From: Nanoarchaeota archaeon SCGC AAA011-G17
GTDB lineage: Archaea; Nanobdellota; Nanobdellia; SCGC-AAA011-G17
Assembly: GCA_000402515.1 (NCBI GenBank)
Contig: AQRL01000038.1
Location: 37,344-101,343 of the forward strand
Length of the DNA: 64,000 bases
Direction of reading: 5' to 3'
The translations under genes were made by a program, and so were the position numbers. The notes beneath the pieces were generated by a model. That model was not told the DNA's origin and did not search any database. It was given only the letters and a program-made list of their open reading frames with translations. The number at the start of each line of letters is the position of its first letter. Within the stretch, counting starts at the first letter, position 1. Positions 11,560 through 63,850 of this stretch are shown piece after piece.

Positions 11560-14500
11560 TTAGATTATATGCTCTTTTCCTATCTTTGCCATAACTAAGT
11601 TATGCATCCTTTGTATGAATTCCTGTTTGTCTTCTATTTTATAGATATCTGTATGCGCCTGTATTATTAAGTTGAATGCAAATGGAGAGGGTATTGTTGT
11701 ATTTATTTCTTTTATTTTTATTTTTTCATCTTCAATCTGTTTCAGAACTAATTCTGCATTATTAATGTCCATCAGGTCTTCAAAAACCTCCCTCTTTGTT
11801 TCTTTTATTAGTGAGAAATTTGGAGAGATTCTTTTTAATGCGTTCATCAAAATCATTGAAGAGACCTGCTGCCTTCCAACTCTTTTTTTATAACCCTTAT
11901 ACTCCCTTAAAATCATTAAAGAGCGAGTTGCTACATGCCTAAACCTTCTTGAAAGAACCTGTGTTTTATCTATTGCCAGTTCCATTATTTTCTGCAGTTC
12001 AGATGATTTTATTTTTGAAAGGGCCTGTGTTGCCTGAATATTTGTTTCAGAAGAAAGATAAAAACCATTGTCGTTTATTCCTATTTCAACGTCTTTGTGC
12101 TGAAACCTTGAGATTGCATAGGCTAATGCCCTTGATAATACATCATTTACCCTCCTTCCGTATAATGAATGGAAGATTACGTATTTTTTTTTGTCTCCTG
12201 CATAGCAGTATTCAATCACGATTTTTTTATCATTTGGAATCTCTTTTTTATAGAGGAACTGCTCCCTAAAATATTCATAAATTGCATTTGCTGCATTTTC
12301 ATCTATGTAGAGATAATCGAGAATGAACTTAATAATCTCCTCTTTATTTCTTTTTGCCAGCATTTTTTCTTCAACTAACCTCCTGAATTTTCCTATTTCT
12401 AATGCCAAATCAAAGGATAAAGGAAGCATTTCTGAGAACCAGGAGGGGATTGTTGGAAGTTTGCTGACTGTTGCCTGGACTTGGGCGGTCATTCCACGAC
12501 TGAATAGGAAAATGTATCTATTTCCTCCCAATATGAAAACATCTCCTCTTTTTAGCTTCTCAAGAAATAATTCATCTATATGGCCTACAGTCTGCTCTCC
12601 TATTTTTACTGAGATAAAGGATTCATCTGGAATTGTTCCTATATTGGTCATGTAAATCATTCTTGCTAGTTTTCCCTTTTTTCCAATCATGCCTGTTTCT
12701 TTGTCATACCAGATTTTTGCATAGATATGGCGGTCTTCTAGGCTTGAATATTCCCCTGATAGATATTCTATTATTTCCCTGAAGTCTGTCATTGACAAAT
12801 CTTTATATGGGTAAGCCTGCCTTACTAGATTGTATAACTCTTTATAGCTAATCTGATTTGAGATTGCTATTCCGTAGATCTGCTGGGCAAGAACATCGAG
12901 GCAGTTTTTTGGAATGTGAATCTTGTCTATTTTTTTTTCTATTGCTGATTTTAAAAGTACAGAGCACTCTACTAAATCATCCCTGTCTAATACTATAATC
13001 CTTCCTTTTGATGTTTCATGCAGCTTGTGCCCTGACCTGCCAATTCTCTGAATCGCTCGAGCTATACTTTTAGGACTTCCCAATAGAATTACTAAATCAA
13101 TATAACCAATATCCAAACCTAACTCTAATGATGTACTACAAACAACTACCTTTAATTTTCCTTCCCTTAGTTTTTGCTCTATGTTAAAGCGGTGCTCTTT
13201 TGACAGAGAGCCGTGATGGGCTCCAATATTTTCTGTATAATTCTGGGGGAATTTATCTTTAAGATGATAGACTACTCTTTCTGTTGCTGAACGTGTGTTT
13301 GTGAATATCAGGGTTGTTTTATGTTGCTGTATCAAGGAATCAATTAAGTTATACATCTCGGTATGGAGCTTTTCTGGTTCAATATTAATTATGTCGGGCA
13401 CTGGAGAAAGAACTTTTAGATCCATTTTTTTGATAAACTGAGAATCAACTATTTTACATGGTCGTGTTTTTCCATTTTCCAGTCCTACTAAGAATTGCGC
13501 TATTTCTTCTAATGGCGAAATTGTAGCTGAAAGGCCTATTCTTGTTAGTGGTTCTTTTGTTAGGGCTTGTAATCTTTCTAGAGATAGTGATAAATGAGTG
13601 CCTCGTTTCGAATCTGCTAAGGCATGAATCTCGTCTATTACCAGATATCTTGTACTTTTTAGATGTTCTATGAATTTTGTTGAGGTCAAAACAATTGCCA
13701 ATGATTCCGGAGTACAAAGAAGAATATGGGGAGCTTTGTTGGACATCTTTTGCTTTTCAGATGCTGTTGTATCTCCTGTTCTTACTGCTATTCTTATCCC
13801 AAATTTCTTTTCTGCTAATTTTTCTATTTCTTCCAGTGGTGTTTTTAGATTAACTTCTATATCCCTTGTTAATGCCTTAAGCGGAGAAACGTAAACAGCG
13901 TATGTTTTGTCTTCCAACATATTATTTTCTGAGAGATTTATTAATTCATTTAGGATTGAGAGAAATGCTGTTAAGGTATTATGCAGGTATATTCCCCCAT
14001 ACCCTCCAACGAAATTATGTATATCTGGAACTGTTAAATCAATAACTTTTCCATTATATTCAAACTCCTTAATTTCTTTTACTTTAAGCCAACAAATATT
14101 TTTATTTAACAACTCGTCAATTTCTTTAAATAAACCATTTAAATTTTTATTATTAAACTTTATAATTTTGTTTTTTAAATTTGTTAAAGCAATTTCAGTT
14201 ATATAACCTGTTCTTCTTACTACTTCATAAATAGTTCCAAATTCTTTATTAAATTCTATATCATTTTTACATAGTTTTGACAAGTTTCTAATCTTTTTGT
14301 AATCAAATTTATGTTTTAAAACACATTCTCCGTTAGATTTTTTTAGTATTTGTTTTTCTAATAAAAAATGGTTTGGATGATCTATATCTACTTCTTCTAA
14401 GAATAATTTAATATTTTTTATTTTTCTAATAATCAAGGAATAATATTCTCTTCTAGTTTTATTTATTGTATTTGAAGCATACCTTATTGGCTTGTTTATG

Positions 14501-15858
14501 GAGGAAAATATACCCAATGATAATAGTAAATAATTGATAATTTCAATCTTATTTTTATTAGATTGATGTAAGATAATCTCTCCACCTTCTTTTGAAATTG
14601 TAGATTCCAAAGAAAAAAATACATTTAGAAAATTAGTTTTTATATCTTTCTTTGCATCAAGAAGCCAGTTTGGTAAAGAAACATATCTTCCTCTTCCGAT
14701 TTTTATTTCTAATAAATCTCTTAAAAAATAACAAAATAATGTAAAATCTACAGAATAATCTTTTTCATTTTTTTGTTTGAACTTCACATCAAATAGTTTT
14801 TTGCTATTCTTAAAAAATTCTTTTAACAAATATTTTCTATTCTTTTGTGAAACAGCTAAGTGAGTTCCCCTTTCATAATCCCCAATAAACCCCTCTGCAA
14901 GAACAAATGATAACCACCTTGCTAACTTTATATCTACTTTTTTAGGATATCTAAAAGAGAAAGTATTATTCCCCTTGTTTTTAACAATTATCCTGTTTTT
15001 TTCAAATTTAACTTTTTTACATTCTTTTTTAAATAAATTAAATAATAATTCTTTTTTATAATTTGTTTGCTTGTTGAATAAATTATATACCTGGCTTATT
15101 GATAATCCTATTTTATTCCCTAAGTCAGCAAAGGATGTTTTTTGTAAGGTCTTAATTTCATACAGTTCTTTGATAGTTAAATTATTAAAATTGTTAAAAT
15201 TATTTGTTTTCTTTTTTAATCTTAAATAATCTTCATAAATAATGGATATTCCAGCTTTATCTTTTAAATTTTGTATTGCTAGCTTGTAATCCAGAAAAAT
15301 CTCTCTCTCAGGCAATTTAATTGTTTTTGGTACAGCTATTTTATCTTCTTTTTTGATATCTTTTGCAGGAACCCATCCTTTTCCTTCAACGAGTAATGGA
15401 TGATCTTTGCTGAGTTTTATTTCCCGACCATATTCTGTCCTTATTTTCAATAATGTATCTTTGGTGTCTTCAAAATAAACTAATGCCTTTGTCTTTTTAA
15501 TTTGATTTTCGTCCAATGAAAAACTTTTTAGAGATGATAGACTGTATAACTCTCCTGTTTTATCAATATTTGTTATTTTTTTACCTTTCTTTTTTGCTAT
15601 TTCCATTAATTCTTCTGCCTTTAGCAATTTTGTACGACCATCTAACTCTAATAAAATATTTGTATCTGGAGTTATGCATTTTGTTGCTCCTGTTGGTGCT
15701 GATATTAGAATGTTATTTTCATTATGAATTTCCATTACGCCATATAGCTGTGGGAGTGAAAACTCCTTAAACTTTGTAAAGAACCACTGCTTTACTATTG
15801 GGTTTAGGATTTTCTCTATCTGCTCTTTTGTGTGAGGTTTTTCCAAATAGGTTATCAT
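11560..15858 (-). CDS. lhr: Lhr-type ATP-dependent helicase (DEAH/DExH box) interrupted by an in-frame intein
   Basis: The extein reads 'SAPTGATK|TLTAFLSIL', 'YVSPLKALTRD', 'RTGDT', 'LLCTPESL', 'LVIDEIHAL'. These are Lhr-core motifs. The extein is ~865 aa. Confidence 0.8.
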   Translation of the reverse strand: MITYLEKPHTKEQIEKILNPIVKQWFFTKFKEFSLPQLYGVMEIHNENNILISAPTGATKCITPDTNILLELDGRTKLLKAEELMEIAKKKGKKITNIDKTGELYSLSSLKSFSLDENQIKKTKALVYFEDTKDTLLKIRTEYGREIKLSKDHPLLVEGKGWVPAKDIKKEDKIAVPKTIKLPEREIFLDYKLAIQNLKDKAGISIIYEDYLRLKKKTNNFNNFNNLTIKELYEIKTLQKTSFADLGNKIGLSISQVYNLFNKQTNYKKELLFNLFKKECKKVKFEKNRIIVKNKGNNTFSFRYPKKVDIKLARWLSFVLAEGFIGDYERGTHLAVSQKNRKYLLKEFFKNSKKLFDVKFKQKNEKDYSVDFTLFCYFLRDLLEIKIGRGRYVSLPNWLLDAKKDIKTNFLNVFFSLESTISKEGGEIILHQSNKNKIEIINYLLLSLGIFSSINKPIRYASNTINKTRREYYSLIIRKIKNIKLFLEEVDIDHPNHFLLEKQILKKSNGECVLKHKFDYKKIRNLSKLCKNDIEFNKEFGTIYEVVRRTGYITEIALTNLKNKIIKFNNKNLNGLFKEIDELLNKNICWLKVKEIKEFEYNGKVIDLTVPDIHNFVGGYGGIYLHNTLTAFLSILNELINLSENNMLEDKTYAVYVSPLKALTRDIEVNLKTPLEEIEKLAEKKFGIRIAVRTGDTTASEKQKMSNKAPHILLCTPESLAIVLTSTKFIEHLKSTRYLVIDEIHALADSKRGTHLSLSLERLQALTKEPLTRIGLSATISPLEEIAQFLVGLENGKTRPCKIVDSQFIKKMDLKVLSPVPDIINIEPEKLHTEMYNLIDSLIQQHKTTLIFTNTRSATERVVYHLKDKFPQNYTENIGAHHGSLSKEHRFNIEQKLREGKLKVVVCSTSLELGLDIGYIDLVILLGSPKSIARAIQRIGRSGHKLHETSKGRIIVLDRDDLVECSVLLKSAIEKKIDKIHIPKNCLDVLAQQIYGIAISNQISYKELYNLVRQAYPYKDLSMTDFREIIEYLSGEYSSLEDRHIYAKIWYDKETGMIGKKGKLARMIYMTNIGTIPDESFISVKIGEQTVGHIDELFLEKLKRGDVFILGGNRYIFLFSRGMTAQVQATVSKLPTIPSWFSEMLPLSFDLALEIGKFRRLVEEKMLAKRNKEEIIKFILDYLYIDENAANAIYEYFREQFLYKKEIPNDKKIVIEYCYAGDKKKYVIFHSLYGRRVNDVLSRALAYAISRFQHKDVEIGINDNGFYLSSETNIQATQALSKIKSSELQKIMELAIDKTQVLSRRFRHVATRSLMILREYKGYKKRVGRQQVSSMILMNALKRISPNFSLIKETKREVFEDLMDINNAELVLKQIEDEKIKIKEINTTIPSPFAFNLIIQAHTDIYKIEDKQEFIQRMHNLVMAKIGKEHII
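13978..15678 (-). mobile_element. Intein (567 aa) with LAGLIDADG homing-endonuclease domain, inserted between Lys and Thr of the Lhr Walker-A motif
   Basis: It starts with Cys ('CITPDTNILLELDG') and ends 'VGGYGGIYLHN', followed by Thr+1. DOD motifs are 'WLSFVLAEGFIGD' and 'FLNVFFSLEST'. Confidence 0.8.
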
Positions 15859-22056: not shown

Positions 22057-25000
22057 GTGATGGCAGTAATAGAAAAGATTAAGATGCAGGGATTTAAGTC
22101 CTTTGCCAAGTCTACTGAAGTTCCTTTAGGCAAGGATTTTAGTGTTATACTAGGCCCTAATGGCTCTGGTAAATGCCTAATTGGCAGTTCTTTAGTACAG
22201 TTAAATGATGGCTCCTTGGTTGAAATAGGTAAAATAGTTGAGGATAAATTGAAGACCAACTCTATTAAAAAAATAGATGATGGCTTTATAGCTGAAGGGG
22301 ATGATACTAAGATTATTTCTTTAAATTTAAATAACCTGAAAAATGAGGCTAAAGAGATTAAGGCTTATGTTAAAAGGGAATCTCCTGAATATTTATTAAG
22401 AATTAAGACAAGAAGCGGCAGGGAAATTACCAGTACAGAATATCATCCTTTATTTGTTTTTGAGGAGAATAGGATTAGGGCTGTTAAAGCTGACGAACTA
22501 AAAATAGGGGTTAAAATAGCTGTTCCGAGGCAGATTAGTATTGGAAAAAATAATTATTTTTATGAGTTAATTGATTTAATTGACAAAGGTGATAGAATTT
22601 ATGTTTCTTATAATGAAGAGTTTATTTGTATTTTAAATAAGTTAAAAAAATCTACATGGAAAGACTTGGCTAATGAGATAGGAATTCCTTTGAATGCTAT
22701 TAAGGGACTATTAGATAAACAGGCTATTAATTTTGCTTATTTAATTAAACTACTTAAACACTCTAAATTAAGTAATCAGGAAATAATAAAACTCATTCCT
22801 TATGTTAAATCAAAAGGCATTGAAAGAAAATATAAAGTTCCATGGTGTAATTCCAGAGAATTTTCAAGATTTTTTGGATATTTAATTGCTGAAGGAAGGT
22901 TACCAGAATCAAGTAATCAAATATGGTTTACAAATGGGGATGAGGAGATTGTTAGTGATTATGCTAATCTAGTCGCTCATTTGTTTGAAGTTAAGCCAAG
23001 CATTAATGAATATAAAGAGGGATGCTGGGATGTTTTGTTTTATTCTGTTCCAATAAGACAGATTTTAGATAAATTTGGCATGCATGTTGGTGGAAAAACC
23101 GAAAATAAAGAACTAACTAATTTATTTTTAAAAAACAGTTCTGATATAGAATTGGGAGAATTTTTATCCGGACTTTATTCCGGGGATGGCTATGTGGGAA
23201 AAAGCAGCATTGATATAATAACCAAGAGCAGAAAGTTGGGTTTTAATATTGAGAATATTTTGGTAAGATTGGGCATATTATTTAGCTCAAGATATAAAAT
23301 TAAAATTGCTACCAACAGTGGTTTTAGCGGGATTTATAGAGAAATTTCAGTATATGGCGTTGAGAATTTCTTAAAGTTTAAAAAATATGTCAATATAGTC
23401 CATAATTCAAAGAGAGAAAGGCTTGATAATCTTTTGGGCGTTAAGTCAAATCCAAATTTAGATGTTATAGATGTTAATAATTTAATAAGGAAGGTTGTTA
23501 AAGAGTTTAATATAAAAATAAAATCAAATAAGAAAGAATTTCCAAGATTAGGTGCCTATTGTTATAAACAATGTTTACCGAGCAGGAGCGGTATAAACTA
23601 TTTGATTGATAATTTGTTTTCTAACTCTAATGAACATGAGAATTTATTACTGTTAAAACAAATAGCTAACTCTGATATTTATTGGGATGAAATTATTGAG
23701 ATTGAAAAGATAAAAAGCAATGAGAAATGGGTTTATGACCTATGTATTGAAGATAATCATAATTTTATTGCGAATAATATATTTGTACATAACAGCAACA
23801 TTACAGATGCAATATGTTTTGTTCTCGGAAGATTGAGCGCCAAAAGCCTTAGAGCAGACAAGAGCGCTAATTTAATCTATAATGGGGGGAAAAAGGGGGA
23901 GCCTGCAAAAGAGGCAGAGGTAAGCATTTTGTTTGATAATTCTAATAAGTTATTTCCATTAAATGTCAGCAAGATAAAGATTACAAGAAGCGTCAGAGAA
24001 AACGGGCAGAGCAAGTACAAAATAAATGATGAAATCAGGACAAGGCAGCAGGTCATAGATTTATTGGCTGCTGGAAAGATAAATCCAGATGGGTATAATA
24101 TTGTTCTGCAGGGAGATATTACACATGTTACTGAGATGCCTACAGAGGAGAGGAGAAAGGTTATTGAGGATATTTCCGGCATTGGTGTTTATGAGGAAAA
24201 AAAAGAAAAGGCAATTAATGAATTAACAAAGGTTGATGTGAAATTAAATGAGGCAAGCATTGTTCTGAAGGAGAGAGAAACCTATCTTAGTGAGCTAAAA
24301 AAAGACAGGGATCATGCTGCTAAATACAAGGATCTTGAAGGCAATATCAAGAGGAATAAGGCTACCTTTTTGCATGTTCAGATTAATGACAAACAAAAGA
24401 AGAGGGAAGAGTTTGAAGGCAAGATTAATAAAAATCAGGAAGAGGCTGATAAGATAAGAAAGACGGTTGATGAATTGAGAGAGGAAATTAACAAAAATAA
24501 GGAAGAGATTAGTTCTATCAGCAAGGAAATAGAGGAGAAGGGAGAGAAAGAGCAGGTTAATCTTCACAGAGAGATTGAAACTGTTAAAGAGCAGAAGGCC
24601 AGAGACCAGGCAAGAATGGAGGGTTTGGGCAATGAGCTTAACAGGATTAATGAGAGAAAGAAACAATTAGAGATTGATTTAAGAGAAATAACTGAAAAGA
24701 TAAAACAACTGGAAAATGAGAGAAATAATTTAACAAAAAGAAGAAAGATTATTGTTGAAAAAGAGAGCATCATTGAAAAGAAATTAGGAGGAAAAAGAGG
24801 AGATAACAAGGAAGAGAGGGATTTAGACGAGATTGAAAAAAAGCTGGATGAAAAACAATTTATCCTGGATGAATTAAATAACAAGAAAACAATTTTGTTA
24901 AGGGATAAAGACAGATTAGACACACAGATAAATTCTCTGAATAAATTAAGCGGCGGAGATGAATTAAAAAAATTAAAAGAGTTTAAAGAGAAATTTAAAG

Positions 25001-27072
25001 AGGTTTCCAGTAATCTTAATAGTTCTTTAAAAGATAATGATAATATTGTTTCACAGCTTTCCAAGGCAAGAAGCAAATTAAGAGAGATAAGCGAGGAGCA
25101 GGCCAGATTAAGCATAAGAGAGGTTAGTTTCAAAGAAGGGGCTTATGGCGACCTTGCTTTAAACAAGATAAAAGAGCTTAGAATGAATGGGGTGTATGGG
25201 ACAATAGCTGAGCTTGGTGAGGTTGACAAGAAGTTTTCTATGGCTTTGGAGGTTGCTGCCGGCTCCAGAATAAAAAGTATTGTTGTTGAGGATGATTCTA
25301 TTGCTGCCAAGTGCATCAAATATTTAAAAGACAATAAACTAGGTGTTGTTACTTTCCTGCCTTTGAACAAAATAAAGGCTCCTGAAGCAATTGATAAAAA
25401 AGTGGGTTATGGCATTGCCCTGAATCTAATAAAATTTGACAACAAATTCAGCAGGGCATTTGGCTATGTTTTTGGAAATACAATTGTTGTTGAGAATATA
25501 AACCAGGCAAGAAATATCGGCATTGGAAAGGACAGGATGGTTACTTTAGATGGGGATTTAGTTGAGGGCTCTGGAGCAATGATTGGTGGTTTCAGAAGGC
25601 AAAAAACAGGATTTAAACAGATGGATTTTACAAAGAACCTTGAAGAGCTTAATAATGAGATTGGAAGATTAAGAGAGATTGTAGATAGTTTAGAGAAGAA
25701 AAAATTAGAGAATGAGGATAATGTTTATCTGTTAAGAAACGATAAGTCTGAATTAGAGGGAGAGATTATAAAACTGGAGAAGAGCTTTGGCGGGGAAGAA
25801 GAGAAAAATGAAAGAGAATCAGCTGTTAAAAATCTAAATAGTGTTGAAAGGGAATTAAATAATGCTGAAGCAAATTACAATAAATTGCTTAAGGATGTTG
25901 AAGAATTAAAAAATAAAAAAAGCTCTTTGAGAGAGAGTGTAAGCAAGATAAGAGGAAACAAAGAAACTGATAAAATAGATTCTGAGTTCAGGCAGATTAG
26001 AGAAGAAAGAATTGTTTTGGAGAATGAATTAAAAAATATTGAGATACAGATAAGAGACGGATTAATTCCAGAAAGAGAAAATATAATCAGGATTATTAAA
26101 GAGCATGAAAAAGAGATTTTAGAATTCCAGAAAGAGAGCGAGGATATCAGTGATAGACTTCTTAAAAATCTTAATCTTTTAAAAGATAAGGAGAGGAATG
26201 AAAAGGAATTTTATTCTAATTTCAAAAATTTATTTAACAAGAGAAACAAATTAAGCGATGAAATACAAAAGAGGGAATTAAAGAGTGTAAGTGAGTATAG
26301 CAGAGTTAGGGCAATTGAGGACAGAACTAACAGCCTGAATATTGATAGGGCAAAGGTATGTGCTGAATTAGAAGGTCTTAATGCTGAATATGAGCAGTTT
26401 AAGGAAATTCAATTAAGAAAAGGAATTGAAATGGATAAATTAAAAGAGGAAATCAGAGATTTTGAAAAGATGATGAATAATCTTGGGAATGTTAATCTAA
26501 GAGCCTTGGAGATTTATGATGAGATTGAAAAGGAGTATAATTCTTTACAGGACAAGGCTGCTACACTAAAATTAGAGAAAGAGGATGTACTAAAGATGAT
26601 TAGTGAGATAGAAAGCAAGAAAGGAGATATGTTTATGAAGAGCTATTCTGAGATAAGCAGGAATTTTGAGAGAATCTTTTCCGAATTGACTGACAAGGGA
26701 ACTGCACATCTTATTTTGGATGATAAGGACAATCCATTTAACGGCGGATTGAAGATTATGGTAAGGATTGCTAAAGGGAAATATCTGGATATCAAGAGCT
26801 TATCCGGGGGAGAAAAGACTCTGACTGCCTTGGCTTTCATATTTGCTATACAGGAATATGACCCTGGGCATTTCTATGTCTTTGATGAGGTTGATGCGGC
26901 TCTGGACAAGACTAATTCCTCTAAATTAGCTAAATTGTTAAGAAAGTACAGCGATAAGGCGCAGTATATTGTTATAAGCCATAATGACAATTTGATTTCT
27001 GAGGCTAATCAGCTATACGGCGTTAGTATGACTGAGAATGGAATGAGCAAGGTTATCAGCTTAAAGGTTTAA
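22057..27072 (+). CDS. smc: Chromosome segregation protein SMC interrupted by an in-frame intein
   Basis: The extein reads 'FKSFAKSTEVPLGKDFSVILGPNGSGK|SNITDAICFVLG' (SMC N-terminal Walker A). It has long coiled coils. C-terminal 'LSGGEKTLTALAFIFAIQ' (signature motif) and 'FYVFDEVDAALD' (Walker B) are present. Confidence 0.85.
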   Translation: MMAVIEKIKMQGFKSFAKSTEVPLGKDFSVILGPNGSGKCLIGSSLVQLNDGSLVEIGKIVEDKLKTNSIKKIDDGFIAEGDDTKIISLNLNNLKNEAKEIKAYVKRESPEYLLRIKTRSGREITSTEYHPLFVFEENRIRAVKADELKIGVKIAVPRQISIGKNNYFYELIDLIDKGDRIYVSYNEEFICILNKLKKSTWKDLANEIGIPLNAIKGLLDKQAINFAYLIKLLKHSKLSNQEIIKLIPYVKSKGIERKYKVPWCNSREFSRFFGYLIAEGRLPESSNQIWFTNGDEEIVSDYANLVAHLFEVKPSINEYKEGCWDVLFYSVPIRQILDKFGMHVGGKTENKELTNLFLKNSSDIELGEFLSGLYSGDGYVGKSSIDIITKSRKLGFNIENILVRLGILFSSRYKIKIATNSGFSGIYREISVYGVENFLKFKKYVNIVHNSKRERLDNLLGVKSNPNLDVIDVNNLIRKVVKEFNIKIKSNKKEFPRLGAYCYKQCLPSRSGINYLIDNLFSNSNEHENLLLLKQIANSDIYWDEIIEIEKIKSNEKWVYDLCIEDNHNFIANNIFVHNSNITDAICFVLGRLSAKSLRADKSANLIYNGGKKGEPAKEAEVSILFDNSNKLFPLNVSKIKITRSVRENGQSKYKINDEIRTRQQVIDLLAAGKINPDGYNIVLQGDITHVTEMPTEERRKVIEDISGIGVYEEKKEKAINELTKVDVKLNEASIVLKERETYLSELKKDRDHAAKYKDLEGNIKRNKATFLHVQINDKQKKREEFEGKINKNQEEADKIRKTVDELREEINKNKEEISSISKEIEEKGEKEQVNLHREIETVKEQKARDQARMEGLGNELNRINERKKQLEIDLREITEKIKQLENERNNLTKRRKIIVEKESIIEKKLGGKRGDNKEERDLDEIEKKLDEKQFILDELNNKKTILLRDKDRLDTQINSLNKLSGGDELKKLKEFKEKFKEVSSNLNSSLKDNDNIVSQLSKARSKLREISEEQARLSIREVSFKEGAYGDLALNKIKELRMNGVYGTIAELGEVDKKFSMALEVAAGSRIKSIVVEDDSIAAKCIKYLKDNKLGVVTFLPLNKIKAPEAIDKKVGYGIALNLIKFDNKFSRAFGYVFGNTIVVENINQARNIGIGKDRMVTLDGDLVEGSGAMIGGFRRQKTGFKQMDFTKNLEELNNEIGRLREIVDSLEKKKLENEDNVYLLRNDKSELEGEIIKLEKSFGGEEEKNERESAVKNLNSVERELNNAEANYNKLLKDVEELKNKKSSLRESVSKIRGNKETDKIDSEFRQIREERIVLENELKNIEIQIRDGLIPERENIIRIIKEHEKEILEFQKESEDISDRLLKNLNLLKDKERNEKEFYSNFKNLFNKRNKLSDEIQKRELKSVSEYSRVRAIEDRTNSLNIDRAKVCAELEGLNAEYEQFKEIQLRKGIEMDKLKEEIRDFEKMMNNLGNVNLRALEIYDEIEKEYNSLQDKAATLKLEKEDVLKMISEIESKKGDMFMKSYSEISRNFERIFSELTDKGTAHLILDDKDNPFNGGLKIMVRIAKGKYLDIKSLSGGEKTLTALAFIFAIQEYDPGHFYVFDEVDAALDKTNSSKLAKLLRKYSDKAQYIVISHNDNLISEANQLYGVSMTENGMSKVISLKV
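22174..23793 (+). mobile_element. Intein (540 aa) with LAGLIDADG homing-endonuclease domain, inserted between Lys and Ser of the SMC Walker-A motif
   Basis: It starts 'CLIGSSLVQLNDG' and ends 'NFIANNIFVHN', followed by Ser+1. DOD motifs are 'FFGYLIAEGRL' and 'FLSGLYSGDGYV'. Confidence 0.85.
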
Positions 27073-36715: not shown

Positions 36716-36828
36716 TGGGAACGTGGGGATTTGAACCCCAATCAACTGGTGTCTTCTAAATCACAGCCGAAGCTCATCACTCCAAACACTGGAGCCAGTT
36801 ACACTAAACCAGGTTGTGCTACGCTCCC
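36716..36828 (-). tRNA. tRNA-Trp (anticodon CCA) containing a 38-nt intron at the canonical 37/38 position
   Basis: Reverse complement folds as a cloverleaf. Acceptor GGGAGCG/CGTTCCC. D-arm GCAC..GTGT with GG in the loop. Anticodon stem ACTGG/CCAGT. Loop CUCCAG|A. T-arm TGGGG-TTCAAAT-CCCCA. Discriminator A73. No encoded CCA. Confidence 0.7.
36751..36788 (-). other. tRNA intron (bulge-helix-bulge type)
   Basis: The intron TGTTTGGAGTGATGAGCTTCGGCTGTGATTTAGAAGAC pairs TGGAG with the anticodon-loop CUCCA. It contains a box-C-like GTGATGA. Confidence 0.6.
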
Positions 36829-58877: not shown

Positions 58878-59420
58878 TTACGCATTTATACCCACTTCAA
58901 ACGGCTCTATATTTTCTTTTATATAGAATCCCTTAATAATGTTTGGGATTAATTTTGGATCCAACTCTTTTTTGATTTTTTTCGGGTCTTCATAACTTAA
59001 AACCTGTATTTCTCTATTTAGTTTTGTTTCGAATTCTGCTTCGTAAAATTCTTTGTCATCCCCGTATATAAAAATATCTATATCACTTGATTTGCTCCAA
59101 TCCCCTCTTGAAAAACTTCCGAATAAAATAGCTGTTTTTATCTTTTTAATATTACTGAGATGCTCAAATAAACCACTTTTTTCCAGAATTGAAAGCCCAT
59201 AGAGCCTTTTTTCATTTCTGAATTTTGGCAAATCCCTATTAGCTGTGTAATAAGGCATCCTGCCTCTTTTTTTATTTTTTTTAATGAAATCTTCCTTTAG
59301 CAATTCTTTTAAGAAATGATTAGTTCGTTCTCTACTAATTCCTGCTTCCTTTACAATCTCTTCAAAATGCCATCTTTTTAATGATTCATTGAAGAATAAT
59401 ACTTTGATTTTTTCTTTCAT
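58878..59420 (-). CDS. Nucleotidyltransferase with N-terminal HTH
   Basis: 'AILFGSFSRGDWSKSSDIDIFIY' is an NTase motif. N-terminal 'WHFEEIVKEAGISRERTNHFLKELLKEDFI' is HTH-like. Confidence 0.55.
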   Translation of the reverse strand: MKEKIKVLFFNESLKRWHFEEIVKEAGISRERTNHFLKELLKEDFIKKNKKRGRMPYYTANRDLPKFRNEKRLYGLSILEKSGLFEHLSNIKKIKTAILFGSFSRGDWSKSSDIDIFIYGDDKEFYEAEFETKLNREIQVLSYEDPKKIKKELDPKLIPNIIKGFYIKENIEPFEVGINA

Positions 59421-60870: not shown

Positions 60871-60997
60871 TATTGATTCTAAAATATACGAGAAGCTGAA
60901 GGAAAAAGTGAAAAATGATAAAGTAAAGTATCCTTCTGTGAAATTTCTTGTTCATAAACTGATAATGGAGAAGATGGATGAAACCAAAGGATTGTGA
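60857..60997 (+). CDS. Small RHH-like protein (46 aa)
   Basis: 'MVNVDIDSKIYEKLKEKVKNDKVKYPSVKFLVHKLI' is an RHH pattern. Not in the ORF track because it is under 60 aa. Confidence 0.35.
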   Translation: MVNVDIDSKIYEKLKEKVKNDKVKYPSVKFLVHKLIMEKMDETKGL

Positions 60998-61118
60998 ATA
61001 TGCAATAGCTGTAAAGTGGTCAGATGTGGTTTATAAGTGCGAGAATCTGGATAAATGCGAGTTTGAACTGAAACGTACTGAAGCTAAATACTGCATGCTG
61101 AAGGAGAAAAAGGAATGA
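60978..61118 (+). CDS. Cys-rich mini-protein, paralog 1 (46 aa)
   Basis: 'MKPKDCEYAIAVKWSDVVYKCENLDKCEFEL'. The stop overlaps the next start (ATGA). Confidence 0.4.
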   Translation: MKPKDCEYAIAVKWSDVVYKCENLDKCEFELKRTEAKYCMLKEKKE

Positions 61119-61309
61119 CATGCAAATATCTTAATGGGTTTAACTGCTCTTTGAGAAAGGACAGCTGTCTTGGCTATTACAAAACTGAAAATGGGGAAGG
61201 ATTGGATGAACTGACTATAAGGAGAATGGAGTGCTTTGACGGGAGCAGCTATCTTGATGGATTGTTATTACAAAACCAGTTACAAAGAGGATTTAGGTGG
61301 GAAGAATGA
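61115..61309 (+). CDS. Cys-rich mini-protein, paralog 2
   Basis: 'CKYLNGFNCSLRKDSC...ECFDGS'. Confidence 0.45.
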   Translation: MTCKYLNGFNCSLRKDSCLGYYKTENGEGLDELTIRRMECFDGSSYLDGLLLQNQLQRGFRWEE

Positions 61310-61316
61310 AGCTAGC
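61254..61316. repeat. 63-bp direct repeat (2 mismatches), copy 1; copy 2 at 63729..63791
   Basis: ttgatggattgttattacaaaaccagYtacaaagaggatttRggtgggaagaatgaagctagc. It encodes the '...DGLLLQNQLQRGF(R/G)WEE*' tail plus 'ATGAAGCTAGC'. Confidence 0.75.
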
Positions 61317-61328
61317 GGGGGAATTAAA

Positions 61329-61535
61329 ATGAAATGTGAATATATGAATGGATATGACTGTGTAAAGTATGGTAAAAAATGTCGGGCTCATTTCAAAACT
61401 GAGAGAGGGAATGAGGGAATAAATGATGGTGTTTTGAGAATTTTGGACTGTTATGATGGACCGGATAAAGTAGTATTTCAAGGGGCATTCAAAAGGGGTT
61501 TGGAGAGTGTTTCCAGTGCTTTATCAAAAGAATAA
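61329..61535 (+). CDS. Cys-rich mini-protein, paralog 3
   Basis: 'MKCEYMNGYDCVKYGKKCRAHFKTERGNEG...LDCYDGP'. RBS ggggga upstream. Confidence 0.45.
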   Translation: MKCEYMNGYDCVKYGKKCRAHFKTERGNEGINDGVLRILDCYDGPDKVVFQGAFKRGLESVSSALSKE

Positions 61536-61759
61536 TTGCCAAAAAAACAAGAATAATAAGGAAATAGTCAAGCTTTAAAATGGAAAAATTAAAAATAGAC
61601 AGGGCAAGAACTAATATGATGAAAACTACCAATAATTTATCAAAGGTATCTTTGAGCATGATTTTCTTAATAAAAAACAATTTATAAAATAGCTGGTTGA
61701 GAAGAATATTCTAAGTTTAGTTGTTAGTGTTAATTCTAAGTAAACAAGACAGTTAATTG

Positions 61760-61809
61760 GAAACTTTTAGGAAAAGTTTCATCAAAAAATCTTGAAAAAT
61801 AAATCAGAG
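61760..61809 (+). promoter_or_regulatory. Conserved hairpin motif, copy 1 (gaaactttt-agg-aaaagtttc + atcaaaaaatcttgaaaaataaa), ~85 bp upstream of hicA
   Basis: Perfect 9-bp inverted repeat plus a conserved tail. A second copy lies at 62656..62702. Confidence 0.45.
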
Positions 61810-61892
61810 AAACAGAATCATTTAAAATATCTTTAAATTTATTAAATAATACAAAATGCTTATAAATAAATAATTTAATAATAATATAAAAA

Positions 61893-62099
61893 ATGTCAAA
61901 ACTTCCCAAGGTCGTTAAAGGTAAAGAGATTCTCAAAGTACTTGTTAAACATGGTTATGAAATTAAAAGGCAAAAAGGAAGTCATGTTTCTCTTTCAAAT
62001 AAAGAGATTAATATTACTGTTGTTCTTCCACTAACAACCATTGGAGTCTACAGGCAAATTTCTAAAAAAACAGGGATTCCTGTTGAAGAGTTTTTATAA
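61893..62099 (+). CDS. hicA: HicA-family (YcfA-like) mRNA interferase toxin
   Basis: 'KVLVKHGYEIKRQKGSHVSLSNKEINITVVLP...IGVYRQISKKTGIP' is the HicA pattern with the conserved GSH. Confidence 0.55.
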   Translation: MSKLPKVVKGKEILKVLVKHGYEIKRQKGSHVSLSNKEINITVVLPLTTIGVYRQISKKTGIPVEEFL

Positions 62100-62384
62100 G
62101 AATATTTTTGTTAACATTGGCATTTCAAACTTTTCTTCATCAGATTCTATAAGAGAGCATCTCTCTTCCGGAAAACTTTCTAGATGAAATCTTGCTCCTT
62201 CAGTAAATTTATTAACTGCCTCATCTATTGTTTTTCCTTCTGCAAAAACATTAATATCCGGGCTAGTAGCTATAAACATAGTACTATCTTTAACTTTTCC
62301 CTTTTCTATAACAATATTTAAACCAATCTTTTCCATTTTAACACCCTTAAAAATGAATACCTGCTCCTTTTTAAAACTTTCCAA
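62094..62384 (-). CDS. hicB: HicB-like (UPF0150) antitoxin-domain protein, convergent with hicA
   Basis: 'IVIEKGKVKDSTMFIATSPDINVFAEGKTIDEAVNKFTEGARFHLE' matches the UPF0150/HicB N-domain pattern. Confidence 0.45.
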   Translation of the reverse strand: MESFKKEQVFIFKGVKMEKIGLNIVIEKGKVKDSTMFIATSPDINVFAEGKTIDEAVNKFTEGARFHLESFPEERCSLIESDEEKFEMPMLTKIFL

Positions 62385-62655
62385 AACCCCTATTAAATAT
62401 GAAGATTTGCTAGAAAAATTTAGAAGTTAATTTAAATTATAAATTTTAGTTGTTGCTTTTATGAATCTGTCTATTTCTTTTATAAATTCTGGATCTTTCT
62501 GGGCTTGTTTTATAGTTAATTCTTTCATATTTGTTTAGTTAAATTAGATTAGATATAAGCCTTTCTGTTAAAAAAATATTTCTTAAAACAGTTTTATCAG
62601 AAGAAATCTCCAAGATTAATCAGTTGTTTATCTGTAAGCAATCTCTAAGCCTTAG

Positions 62656-62702
62656 CCGAAACTTTTAAGAAAAAAGTTTCATCAAAAGACTTAAATAGAA
62701 AA
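62656..62702 (+). promoter_or_regulatory. Conserved hairpin motif, copy 2 (gaaactttt-aagaa-aaaagtttc + atcaaaagacttaaatagaaaa)
   Basis: Same 9-bp stem and similar tail as 61760..61809. It lies ~125 bp upstream of the 62827 ORF. Confidence 0.45.
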
Positions 62703-62826
62703 GGGTATTAAAAAATATATCAAAAAACGGAGGGATAGTAATGGATAATAAACAGTTTGGTCTTTCTAATTCTAAAACAAAACTCTTAAATATCTATTCC
62801 AAAACAGCAATCTTGGAGGGATTAAT

Positions 62827-63060
62827 ATGACTAGTGAAATGCTTTTATTAAATAGATTAGATGGAGATATAAACTGGTTTAAAGAACATCAAACAGAGTT
62901 AGAAGAGAAATATGATAACCAATTCATAGCTATTGAAGATGAAGAGTTAATCAGCACTGATAAAAATCTAGACATTCTTATTACTAAATTAAAAAAAATG
63001 GGCAAAGATCCAGCAGGTGTATTAATTAAATTTGTATCAACAACAATAATTATACTTTAA
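62827..63060 (+). CDS. Hypothetical small protein, coupled to the downstream aspartic protease
   Basis: The stop is 1 nt before the next start. Confidence 0.35.
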   Translation: MTSEMLLLNRLDGDINWFKEHQTELEEKYDNQFIAIEDEELISTDKNLDILITKLKKMGKDPAGVLIKFVSTTIIIL

Positions 63061-63061
63061 T

Positions 63062-63508
63062 ATGGTTAAGATCCCCTTAAAGGTCACAAAAGACCGTATT
63101 TTTTTAGCATCTGTAATCTGTGCATTGAAATATAAAATTCCATTTAGACCAATAGAGTTCTGTGTTGATACTGGGAGCCCAGAAACCTATATCAGCTATG
63201 GCATTGCAAGAATTCTTAACCTTCCATTAGGATCGCTATCTGAAAGCGAAAAGATAATCTGTATAGGCGGCATAAAATGCAAGCCCCTGGTTATGAAAAA
63301 TGTCTCTCTTTATCTTAAAGAAGAGAGTGGAAAAAGCGTTAAATTTGATATTCCTGAAATCTATGTGCTAAATCCCACAAGCAAAAAACAGGATTCCTTG
63401 AATCAGGCACAATCAATATCTTCTATTTTAGGGTTAGACTTTTTGAGAGAGAGAAAATTCAAGTTTTTTTGTGATATGGCTAATGATATATCTTATTTAG
63501 AGGATTAA
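63062..63508 (+). CDS. Retropepsin-like (clan AA) aspartic protease
   Basis: 'FCVDTGSPETYIS' has the DTG(S) catalytic motif. ~148 aa. Confidence 0.5.
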   Translation: MVKIPLKVTKDRIFLASVICALKYKIPFRPIEFCVDTGSPETYISYGIARILNLPLGSLSESEKIICIGGIKCKPLVMKNVSLYLKEESGKSVKFDIPEIYVLNPTSKKQDSLNQAQSISSILGLDFLRERKFKFFCDMANDISYLED

Positions 63509-63666
63509 ACTTAACCCAAAAAATCTTCTATATTCTGCTGTTAGGCAACTAATTTTTATGCTTCATGTGATATTTGATGGAAAATCTTCCTCCTTGGGCA
63601 ATTGTAATGATTTTTAAAAAAGATTAGTTTTAAATAGCTTTTTAATTTATTACTTATAGGTTAAAA

Positions 63667-63850
63667 TGATATCTGTTATAATTCCTGCATATAATGAAGA
63701 AGGGAATGTTGCTGTTTTATTTGAGAGAGATAGTTATTTTGATGGATTGTTATTACAAAACCAGCTACAAAGAGGATTTGGGTGGGAAGAATGAAGCTAG
63801 CTGTTGTAATTCCTGCTTATAATGAGGAAGTTAGTATTGGAAGAGTCTAA
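63667..63850 (+). pseudogene. Two remnant N-termini of a family-2 glycosyltransferase ('MISVIIPAYNEEGN...', 'MKLAVVIPAYNEEVS...') fused to a 63-bp repeat
   Basis: The GT2 N-terminal signature 'VIIPAYNEE' appears twice. Each fragment terminates after fewer than 45 codons. Confidence 0.4.

Follow-up and report, generated by a model that had tools for sequence, protein, structure and literature searches.

A hairpin with an ATCAAAA tail at a convergent hicA/hicB locus is a copy of a widespread archaeal palindromic element

In the genome of Nanoarchaeota archaeon SCGC AAA011-G17, a gene for a HicA-family toxin and the convergent gene of its HicB-like partner lie between two copies of one small motif, a 9-bp hairpin followed on its 3′ side by ATCAAAA. 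What is this motif, and does it belong to the gene pair that it flanks? We analyzed the surrounding 64 kb of contig AQRL01000038.1 (here, the window; coordinates are those of its + strand). The original prediction, made from the sequence alone, had offered a shared operator or promoter element, a small RNA, or the terminal repeats of a mini-cassette. We found that both motifs are copies of a palindromic element that is widespread in archaea and is specific neither to hicAB nor to this host. The searchable literature, queried by sequence and by topic, held no description of a hairpin plus ATCAAAA element, which is apparently an undescribed palindromic repeat whose mechanism of spread we infer. 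The earlier view of a structured repeat that is not due to chance held, whereas that of a hicAB-specific operator did not.

Both window copies are on the + strand, 898 bp apart, and share the perfect 9-bp stem GAAACTTTT/AAAAGTTTC. Copy 1 (61760-61780) has the loop AGG, a folding energy of -7 kcal/mol as RNA and its ATCAAAA tail at 61781-61787, while copy 2 (62658-62680) has the loop AAGAA, a fold z of -3.2 and its tail at 62681-62687; both tails are conserved family-wide. The gapped hairpin-tail pattern matched the window exactly twice and was absent from 100 dinucleotide shuffles, which bears out the claim that the motif occurs twice in the same orientation. A covariance model of the family scored copy 1 at 48.3 bits (E = 2e-8) and copy 2 at 39.2 bits (E = 2e-6), with the next full-length match in the window at 15 bits (E = 0.4); matches of 23.2 and 17.8 bits came from the minus-strand reading of these two palindromic stems. 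The window contains no other perfect 9-bp hairpin, and perfect hairpins of 8 bp or more are scarce there (6, versus ca. 12 in shuffles). A regular expression for a perfect hairpin followed by NCAAA gave one further window match, an unrelated 7-bp stem with TCCAAA at 1197 (-).

Past the tails, copy 1 runs into the extension aatcttgaaaaataaatc (61788-61805), which includes an A/T-rich, TATA-like box, and copy 2 into gacttaaatagaaaa (62688-62702), in which CTTAAATAG would be a TATA-like box ca. 45 nt 5′ of a small open reading frame (ORF) at 62741, judging from archaeal promoter geometry. The first extension is 96% conserved in L004 but not family-wide (L-numbers denote the loci compared; L002, L003, L004, and L279 are relatives with the same hicA-hicB module). 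Of the tail consensus originally proposed, ATCAAAA holds throughout the family, while cttRaaa(a)ata is local to close relatives and looks like a TATA-like box. RNA folding around the window copies revealed no structure past the hairpin (z of 100-nt folds, -0.2 to -1.3), and there is therefore no evidence for the structured small RNA that had been suggested. Bulge-helix-bulge structures were absent at both copies, where the flanks pair over only 4 to 5 bp with large internal loops. An Rfam search at gathering thresholds returned one tRNA as the sole match in the window, with nothing at the motif, and gave tRNAs and unrelated riboswitch or leader matches, none at the motif, in 37 related loci. 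An intrinsic terminator was rejected: the stem holds only two G-C pairs, the tail is A-rich, the only T-run is the T4 within the 5′ arm, and a terminator scan was empty at both copies. C/D box, K-turn, H/ACA, and hammerhead readings, inspected by eye on both strands, were likewise rejected because the needed second box or stem II was missing.

Across the family, the element is ca. 28 to 30 nt long. The stem pairs N2-A-(A/C)-C-T3-6 with A3-6-G-(T/G)-T-N2, the T/A runs measuring 3 to 6 nt, around a loop of 2 to 10 nt that is usually purine-rich, and the 3′ tail is fixed as A(T/C)CAAAA. The bases 5′ of the stem are variable, and the 3′ tail is the conserved flank. The outer two stem pairs change together, the outer pair being G-C, T-A, C-G, or A-T with few mismatches, and 1.8% of stem positions overall were mispaired when up to two mismatches were allowed. 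Thermococcus versions have stems lengthened by G-C pairs. G·U wobbles, taken as a test for selection at the RNA level, were not enriched in the stems. In a metagenome search for the hairpin alone, in which the tail was not demanded, 29 of 126 hairpins had a match of at least 6/7 to ATCAAAA on one side, mostly exact. A census of 1.6 Mb of loci placed 207 of 1,068 ATCAAAA sites directly after a perfect hairpin of at least 7 bp, against 0 to 5 for composition-matched control 7-mers. Stems were noncanonical in 36 of the 207 (for example, CAAAC/GTTTG, TGAAC/GTTCA, TAAAC/GTTTA, GCAAC/GTTGC, CAACC/GGTTG, and CGACC/GGTCG). What stays invariant is thus the core A(A/C)CTTT...AAAG(T/G)T followed by A(T/C)CAAAA.

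The original prediction had proposed searching for the motif elsewhere, and it does occur elsewhere. Scanning one genome per prokaryotic species for the exact pattern GAAACTTT-N2-10-AAAGTTTCATCAAAA, we found hairpin and tail in at least 118 genome stretches from unrelated archaea and bacteria, where by our own estimate chance would give no more than ca. 3 even if all genomes had 35% GC. Among the matches listed, ca. 88 were archaeal, from ca. 68 assemblies. The archaeal carriers include Micrarchaeota, Aenigmatarchaeota, Woesearchaeota, Pacearchaeota, Nanoarchaeota, Iainarchaeota, Altiarchaeota, and Undinarchaeota, as well as Methanocaldococcus, Thermococcus, Methanobacteriaceae, "Methanosarcinales," and Nitrosopumilaceae. 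The nonarchaeal carriers among the matches listed were Defluviitaleaceae, whose genomes have many copies each, a few further Clostridia, and a single member of Falkowbacteria, from the candidate phyla radiation (CPR). A single copy per 8-kb locus was the rule in archaea (63 of the 88 loci listed), and high copy numbers were reached in few hosts, namely, Defluviitaleaceae and one Aenigmatarchaeota genome. In GC-rich hosts, the element is compositionally foreign. Hairpin and tail were also present in 13 contigs of the IMG/VR viral collection, while blastn against curated plasmid and phage collections gave no real match.

Some carriers deserve separate mention. In Defluviitaleaceae (L005, L013, L019, L030, L036, and others), the motif is part of a high-copy composite repeat made up of, in order, a GGGGCTCTGCCCC hairpin, ACCCCG, the GAAAC hairpin with ATCAAAACTTTAAC, and a GC-rich terminator-like hairpin; in a related bacterial family, the GAAAC hairpin is nested within a GC stem. 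The IMG/VR contig L126 (239 kb, 20% GC) has GAAAC hairpins in most of its intergenic spacers, and the same was noted for L131. In these two contigs, the hairpins stand in sense after genes, with the tails AGCAAAA, ATCAAAA, and AACAAAA, and in antisense ca. 40 nt before starts. The only recognizable proteins of L126 and L131 were SNF2-type helicases, from which a virus and an archaeon are not distinguishable.

Where, then, does the element sit? In other genomes it occupies transcribed noncoding "safe" positions: tRNA introns, tRNA and ORF ends, cistron spacers, and arrays. Twenty copies lie within intron-containing tRNA genes of many specificities, detected with ARAGORN with introns allowed. 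All 20 are in sense, and 16 begin between -1 and +4 nt from the predicted intron start. In four of these introns (L007, L012, L044, and L066), the 4-bp central helix of a bulge-helix-bulge could be traced by hand, and the hairpin forms the inner helix (h′) beside the 5′ splice-site bulge. Among tRNA-Thr(GGT) genes, the element is found at position 37/38 in L044 and L066 and in the D-loop, with the anticodon loop uninterrupted, in L024; such differing positions indicate independent gains. Introns of L077 and L100 hold inverted pairs of copies. At tRNA ends, four copies adjoin 3′ ends in sense and three adjoin 5′ ends in antisense.

For intergenic copies, the nearest upstream ORF was co-oriented in 61 cases versus 33, often with the hairpin 0 to 50 nt past the stop and in some cases directly at the stop codon. 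Family hairpins are found in many intergenic spacers of L202, L102, and L106 and in most of those of L126, in tandem arrays in L081, L014, L123, and L032, and once inside a pyruvate:ferredoxin oxidoreductase (POR) operon. In-frame copies lie within degenerate TnpB remnants (L015, L039, and L084) and within a plausible real ORF (L027). The remnants (L015, 100-260, minus strand; L039; L084) are internally deleted TnpB (IS200/IS605 OrfB) sequences with the hairpin between ...NAKAILKRA and TLGQRESHAQGE..., an insertion common to two different metagenome-assembled genomes. In L006, L061, and L113, inserts whose left end carries the hairpin lie between target direct repeats of 20 to 27 nt. A general role as a left boundary was not apparent, since shared flanks showed no asymmetry (upstream only, 9; downstream only, 7). 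All-against-all clustering of the ORFs within 2.5 kb of 128 copies yielded no recurrent partner gene, only the synteny of a few ribosomal and RNA polymerase operons. A reading as a promoter element was rejected, because the TATA-like box that follows the tail in the window, L014, and L081 is missing from most copies.

Fifteen loci share a composite of three hairpins, the first being a GC hairpin that covaries (CAAGGG/CCCTTG versus CAACGG/CCGTTG) and is joined by a linker to the GAAAC hairpin with its ATCAAAA tail, after which the last hairpin follows (motif -45 to +75; L034, L037, L040, L053, L064, L075, L079, L086, L092, L094, L110, L114, L121, L215, and L227), and it had no Rfam match. In L079 and L114, the composite lies in a spacer that operon order and protein sizes point to as rpoD-rpl18e, and the other 13 loci have the conserved upstream flank in common. 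A similar composite of a first hairpin and a GAAAC hairpin was seen in Eubacteriales (L021, L076, and L105).

We then return to the gene pair itself. The gene hicA (61893-62099, +) encodes 68 amino acids with a full-length match to PF07927 that scores 39.9 bits where the cut-off is 27 (E = 4.7e-10), so that the HicA identity is secure. It starts ca. 87 nt after the end of tail 1 and has its own TATA-like box ca. 30 nt before its ATG. Its partner (62094-62339, or to 62384 if a TTG start is used, minus strand) encodes 80 amino acids, and copy 2 begins 273 nt past its TTG start and 318 nt past its ATG start. For this protein, the proposed HicB identity drew some weak backing (HicB_lk_antitox, PF15919, E = 0.003) but stayed below the family cut-off, and 13 of 30 homologues matched in a likewise weak manner. 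Homologues of the partner are labeled Nanoarchaeia or Pacearchaeota. When a profile of the partner family was compared with the PDB, the HicB structures 6g1c and 6g1n ranked first (E = 0.06 to 0.1). An AlphaFold model (81 residues, pLDDT 83) predicts a β-β-β-α arrangement corresponding to the N-terminal domain of HicB only, with neither a helix-turn-helix nor a ribbon-helix-helix DNA-binding domain in the model. Foldseek with this model returned nothing at E < 0.05, and its best nonsignificant matches were folds resembling double-stranded RNA-binding domains, 2yzt (probability 0.97), an uncharacterized Thermus protein that we take to be HicB-like, and the putative antitoxin 3k6q. On balance, we regard a HicB-like nature of the partner as probable but unproven.

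The two genes converge and overlap tail to tail by 6 nt. This overlap, which had been called atypical, is real, and it is atypical for the family at large but the conserved norm in a DPANN subfamily. We found the same convergent layout with a 6-nt overlap in 28 related loci (L002-L004 and L257-L280; no hicA was called in L272), where it recurs with 63 to 84% identical homologues beside a trypsin-like protease, LonB, or a proteasome subunit. The convergent, stop-overlapping module is thus kept in at least four DPANN lineages, three besides this one, in differing neighborhoods. In the 22 more distant convergent hicB/hicA loci, from three other lineages, the hairpin was absent by both regular expression and covariance model, and this absence removes the operator hypothesis.

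Among close relatives, the hicA-hicB module travels with the hairpin unit between genomic contexts. The module is 96 to 97% identical among the window, L002, and L004, and L003 and L279 hold the same module, while the flanks differ among all five. In L004, the order is a glycosyltransferase 5′ fragment, ca. 90 nt, the hairpin, and hicA-hicB; in L279 and L003, the module lies 5′ of the block of small ORFs that in the window comes before it; and in L002, past a scaffold gap 3′ of hicB, there is a further hairpin unit with a different gene after it. Altogether, the module with its upstream hairpin unit occupies three different contexts, and to this extent the proposed mini-cassette was upheld; the two window copies are direct and not inverted, however, and are therefore not terminal inverted repeats. 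Similarity between the window and L004 is at background level 5′ of the hairpin and 96% 3′ of it. Homology between the window and L279, in turn, runs at least 45 nt 5′ of the hairpin, which is therefore no fixed breakpoint. At the site in L004 orthologous to copy 1, one base is gone from each arm, a compensated change that leaves a stem 1 bp shorter.

Each window copy lies inside a weakly conserved intergenic unit of ca. 100 nt, and the two units, which are paralogous, each precede a two-gene cassette, hicA/hicB for one and DUF5678/aspartyl protease for the other. The upstream part of unit 1 (61681-61759, +) opens with the TATA-like box TTTATAAAATAG (61681-61692) and that of unit 2 (62579-62657, +) with the TATA-like box TTTCTTAAAACAG; a TATA-like box ca. 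70 nt 5′ of the hairpin is common to both window copies, L002, L004, and L279. The 100 nt 5′ of four or five local copies (those of the window, L002, L004, and L279) are weakly and collinearly similar. For this comparison, identity from alignments with free end gaps was uninformative (shuffled sequences reach 0.76), and we used local-alignment scores against shuffles instead, by which most pairs had z values of 2.7 to 4.8 and one had 1.6. On its hicB side, the module is closed by the 13-nt junction sequence AAGCCTTTCTGTT (62557-62569, +), of which the window has one exact copy. This sequence also follows hicB in L002, L003, and L279, and L279 has it again immediately to the left of its hairpin unit.

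In the second cassette, a 29-amino-acid ORF read from the sequence (62741-62830, +; Shine-Dalgarno GGAGGG) has a stop that overlaps the start (ATGA) of a 77-amino-acid DUF5678 protein (62827-63060, +; PF18929, E = 1.4e-7, above the cut-off), and a 148-amino-acid retropepsin-like aspartyl protease with a DTGS motif follows (63062-63508, +; PF13975/PF13650, E of ca. 1e-4, just below the cut-offs). The three are tightly coupled, with a gap of 1 nt between DUF5678 and the protease, and this trio (62741-63508) may be a toxin-antitoxin-like or defense module.

Both motifs fall within an island at ca. 60.7 to 63.9 kb, composed of small ORFs and toxin-antitoxin-like pairs and bordered by a conserved region on one side and a polysaccharide-synthesis cluster on the other. 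A block of small paralogous Cys-rich ORFs (46 to 70 amino acids; 60978-61535, +) without a Pfam match lies on the opposite side of hicAB in L003 and L279. A 70-nt direct repeat (61247-61316 and 63732-63801; 94% identical), ending in a Shine-Dalgarno sequence and ATG AAG CTA GC, encloses a 2.4-kb block with a Cys-rich ORF, both hairpins, hicA/hicB, and the DUF5678/protease pair. Truncated N-terminal fragments of glycosyltransferase-2 (GT2), MISVIIPAYNEEGNV... and MKLAVVIPAYNEEVSI..., are found at 63666-63731 and 63787-63840, before a flippase gene (63851), and a third GT2 5′ fragment lies directly 5′ of the hairpin unit in L004 (28-65). These fragments look like recombination scars at GT2 5′ ends and, with the 70-nt repeat, the two or three of them add to the picture of a recombining mosaic. 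Farther out, an ORF at 58878-59420 (-) weakly resembles MntA-like nucleotidyltransferase antitoxins (E = 4e-7, short of the cut-off), lending the island further toxin-antitoxin or defense character.

The rest of the window is an archaeal chromosome segment with genes for proteasome alpha, SBDS, exosome Rrp4, enolase, TrmB, and XPD, and at its right end it matches contig AQYW01000052.1 of the single-cell assembly GCA_000380905.1 with full identity. Inteins with a LAGLIDADG domain interrupt an Lhr-type helicase (11560-15858, -) and an SMC protein (22057-27072, +), one in each. At 36716-36828 (-), Rfam found a tRNA gene that ARAGORN missed at default settings; its intron of ca. 40 nt (GUGAUGA...CUGUGAU) is possibly C/D-like and has no GAAAC hairpin.

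What kind of element would leave this record? The explanation that we favor, and to which we give an even chance, is REP/MITE-like selfish palindromic DNA (after the repetitive extragenic palindromic sequences and miniature inverted-repeat transposable elements) carried in cassette leaders. Such an element would spread within and between genomes by some trans-acting mechanism and would be tolerated where a stable stem-loop is harmless, possibly being co-opted as a helix in introns. The window copies would probably be transcribed as part of both cassette leaders, where the stem-loop would play at most a generic RNA role, for instance, exonuclease protection or insulation from upstream transcription; they may also be palindromes at which cassette junctions are prone to recombine, and they would not be a binding site for HicB or HicAB. 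Several results weigh against this explanation. No empty and filled sites with a clean target duplication were recovered, and no transposase or gene resembling a REP-associated tyrosine transposase (RAYT) was linked to the element among the ORFs within 2.5 kb of the 128 copies. Most archaeal loci have a single copy, letter-identical across phyla, whereas classical REPs are high-copy and species-specific. Two observations point to function or selection at the RNA level rather than to neutral selfish DNA: the strictly uniform sense orientation in introns, and the retention of the hairpin, next to covarying hairpins, at the inferred orthologous rpoD-rpl18e spacer of up to 15 Woese/Nanoarchaeia loci, two of which had their gene order checked. 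Since the pattern itself served to choose these 15 loci, part of the hairpin conservation among them follows from that choice. Both window copies stand 5′ of co-oriented genes with a TATA-like box 9 to 12 nt past the tail, and they may have a local promoter-proximal role. Finally, the perfect-stem statistics and the covariation table carry no independent weight, because the sequences behind them were prechosen for perfect stems.

The main rival, which we consider possible but rather unlikely, is that the hairpin with AUCAAAA is a functional cis-acting RNA module recognized by a widely distributed factor. It could serve as a processing or stability signal at transcript ends, as the inner helix h′ of bulge-helix-bulge introns, or, through its T-run, in archaeal termination or insulation, and its role in the window would be to shape both cassettes' 5′ leaders. 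The uniform orientation of the intron copies, most of which begin at the 5′ splice site, the central helices traced by hand, and the bias to positions just after co-oriented ORFs all speak for such a module, as do the G-C-extended stems of Thermococcus, the compensated shorter stem of L004, and retention in up to 15 loci at the inferred rpoD-rpl18e spacer beside the covarying P1 and P3 hairpins. Identity across phyla is also more easily reached by constraint than by drift. On the other hand, stems are perfectly Watson-Crick with no excess of G·U, and the same element occurs in Clostridia and in a CPR bacterium, which are without the archaeal splicing endonuclease. Contexts are mixed (5′ and 3′ of genes, both orientations, in-frame ORF copies, degenerate TnpB), a terminator role conflicts with the copies in tRNA introns and in the POR operon, most genomes have very few copies, and such hairpins are nearly unused in this genome. 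The letter-perfect identity across phyla, the most interesting point, is explained neither by selfish DNA nor by an RNA signal. An unlikely but novel proposal is that hairpin and ATCAAAA are the core of an unrecognized tiny mobile element of archaea, reaching some bacteria, that seeds bulge-helix-bulge tRNA introns. It would supply the helix beside the 5′ splice site, land at RNA-gene and ORF boundaries, and travel with defense or toxin-antitoxin cassettes, spreading via an RNA intermediate or an enzyme that acts on single-stranded DNA.

We regard as improbable that the hairpin units are recombination sites bounding mobile cassettes, similar to integron attC sites or IS200/IS605-type ends, at which a HUH or tyrosine recombinase would read the folded single strand and cut beside ATCAA. 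Three cassettes (hicAB, DUF5678/protease, and that of L002) do open with a hairpin unit, the similarity of the window to L004 rises abruptly from background to 96% where the hairpin begins the match, the junction repeat recurs, and short direct repeats surround the hairpin-led inserts of L006, L061, and L113; the TCAA of the tail and its complement TTGAT also resemble IS608/ISDra2 and pC194-type nick sites. Against these stand the absence of an integrase or HUH gene among the ORFs examined near the motif, a hairpin of 21 to 25 nt without R″/L″/L′/R′ architecture or GTTRRRY core, a tail adjoining the stem where IS608 ends have spacers of 10 to 19 nt, the lack of a family-wide left/right asymmetry of flanks, and the homology with L279 that continues 5′ of the hairpin. 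It is very improbable that each unit is a small noncoding RNA gene, with a TATA-like box, a transcript of ca. 45 nt, and a 3′ hairpin: the fixed distance of ca. 70 nt from box to hairpin in the window copies, L002, L004, and L279 would fit, but nothing folds past the hairpin, no T-run terminator follows it, the 100 nt upstream are weakly conserved, and Rfam has no match. Lowest of all we place a shared operator or promoter for HicB, HicAB, or another local regulator. It would account for two copies in the same orientation ca. 60 to 110 nt 5′ of + strand genes and followed by TATA-like boxes. Nevertheless, the motif is missing from the 22 homologous hicB/hicA loci and is pan-archaeal with no associated gene, the loop length of 2 to 10 nt argues against a double-stranded site for a dimer, the HicB-like protein has no DNA-binding domain in its 81-residue model, and hicA has a TATA-like box of its own.

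If the family is what it appears to be, one 28-nt module is letter-identical across more than 10 archaeal lineages and some gut and termite Clostridia, and it would serve as a sequence tag for horizontal DNA flow among uncultured DPANN archaea. Its recurrence exactly at the 5′ splice sites of introns in many tRNAs, at differing positions within them, would open the question of how archaeal tRNA introns arose and spread to direct tests; were the tiny mobile element real, it would be a concrete source of tRNA intron gain in archaea and a marker of gene flow across phyla. For annotation, such hairpins should not be read as gene-specific operators. A convergent pair of HicA and HicB-like genes with overlapping stops is in itself an unusual toxin-antitoxin layout, and an antitoxin-like partner without a DNA-binding domain raises the question of how the pair is regulated.

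In order to put the element and its gene pair into perspective, we compared them with known systems. Like type II HicAB systems, the pair has a HicA domain (PF07927), a HicB-like β-β-β-α N-terminal domain, and tight pairing; unlike them, it is convergent with overlapping stops instead of a co-directional operon, in at least four DPANN lineages, and its partner lacks a DNA-binding domain and falls below the family cut-offs. With integron attC sites and IS200/IS605 hairpins, the element shares a structure kept over its flanks, a place at cassette junctions, and a TCAA/TTGAT-like motif beside the stem. However, attC sites are 55 to 140 nt long with the arrangement R″-L″...L′-R′, whereas the hairpin has 21 to 25 nt, its GTTTCAT does not fit GTTRRRY, and folding of the 100-nt units yields no long imperfect hairpin; no integrase was found among the flanking ORFs scanned against Pfam/NCBIfam (ca. 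24 of the larger window ORFs, not all). IS200/IS605 ends differ in that the element has one hairpin type, a tail adjoining the stem in place of a cleavage spacing of 10 to 19 nt, and no linked TnpA, its sole link to TnpB being insertion into degenerate remnants.

The element also resembles bacterial REP sequences and REPINs, which are mobilized by RAYTs: both are short extragenic palindromes of 20 to 40 nt with a fixed motif adjoining the stem, found after genes and between cistrons, occasionally in inverted pairs and at high copy number in some hosts. The fixed motif of the element is, however, a 3′ ATCAAAA and not a 5′ GTAG or CGTC; the element is identical across phyla and two domains, has few copies in most archaea, enters tRNA introns, and showed no RAYT-like gene in neighbor clustering. 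In contrast to MITEs, its sole inverted repeat is the hairpin itself, and it has no target-site duplication of fixed size, the direct repeats observed varying from 20 to 70 nt. Other palindromic selfish elements include the Rickettsia palindromic elements and the GC-cluster or palindromic repeats of organelles, for example, in Volvox (PMC2670323). These too are small hairpin repeats whose insertion is tolerated in RNA genes and in frame in ORFs (here, L027 and the TnpB of L015 and L084), but they are lineage-restricted and longer or GC-rich, whereas the element is AT-rich, shorter, and present in distant lineages. Lastly, mobile or transposed bulge-helix-bulge tRNA introns have been described for the archaeal Thermoproteales and ARMAN (PMC4090602). 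The module differs from them in having only 28 nt, in crossing phylum and domain boundaries, in being as common outside tRNAs, behind ORFs and within leaders, and in window copies that lack a bulge-helix-bulge. As in those introns, however, related sequences are found at differing positions and in differing tRNAs, with the hairpin at the expected h′ site and the same tRNA interrupted at different positions in related genomes.

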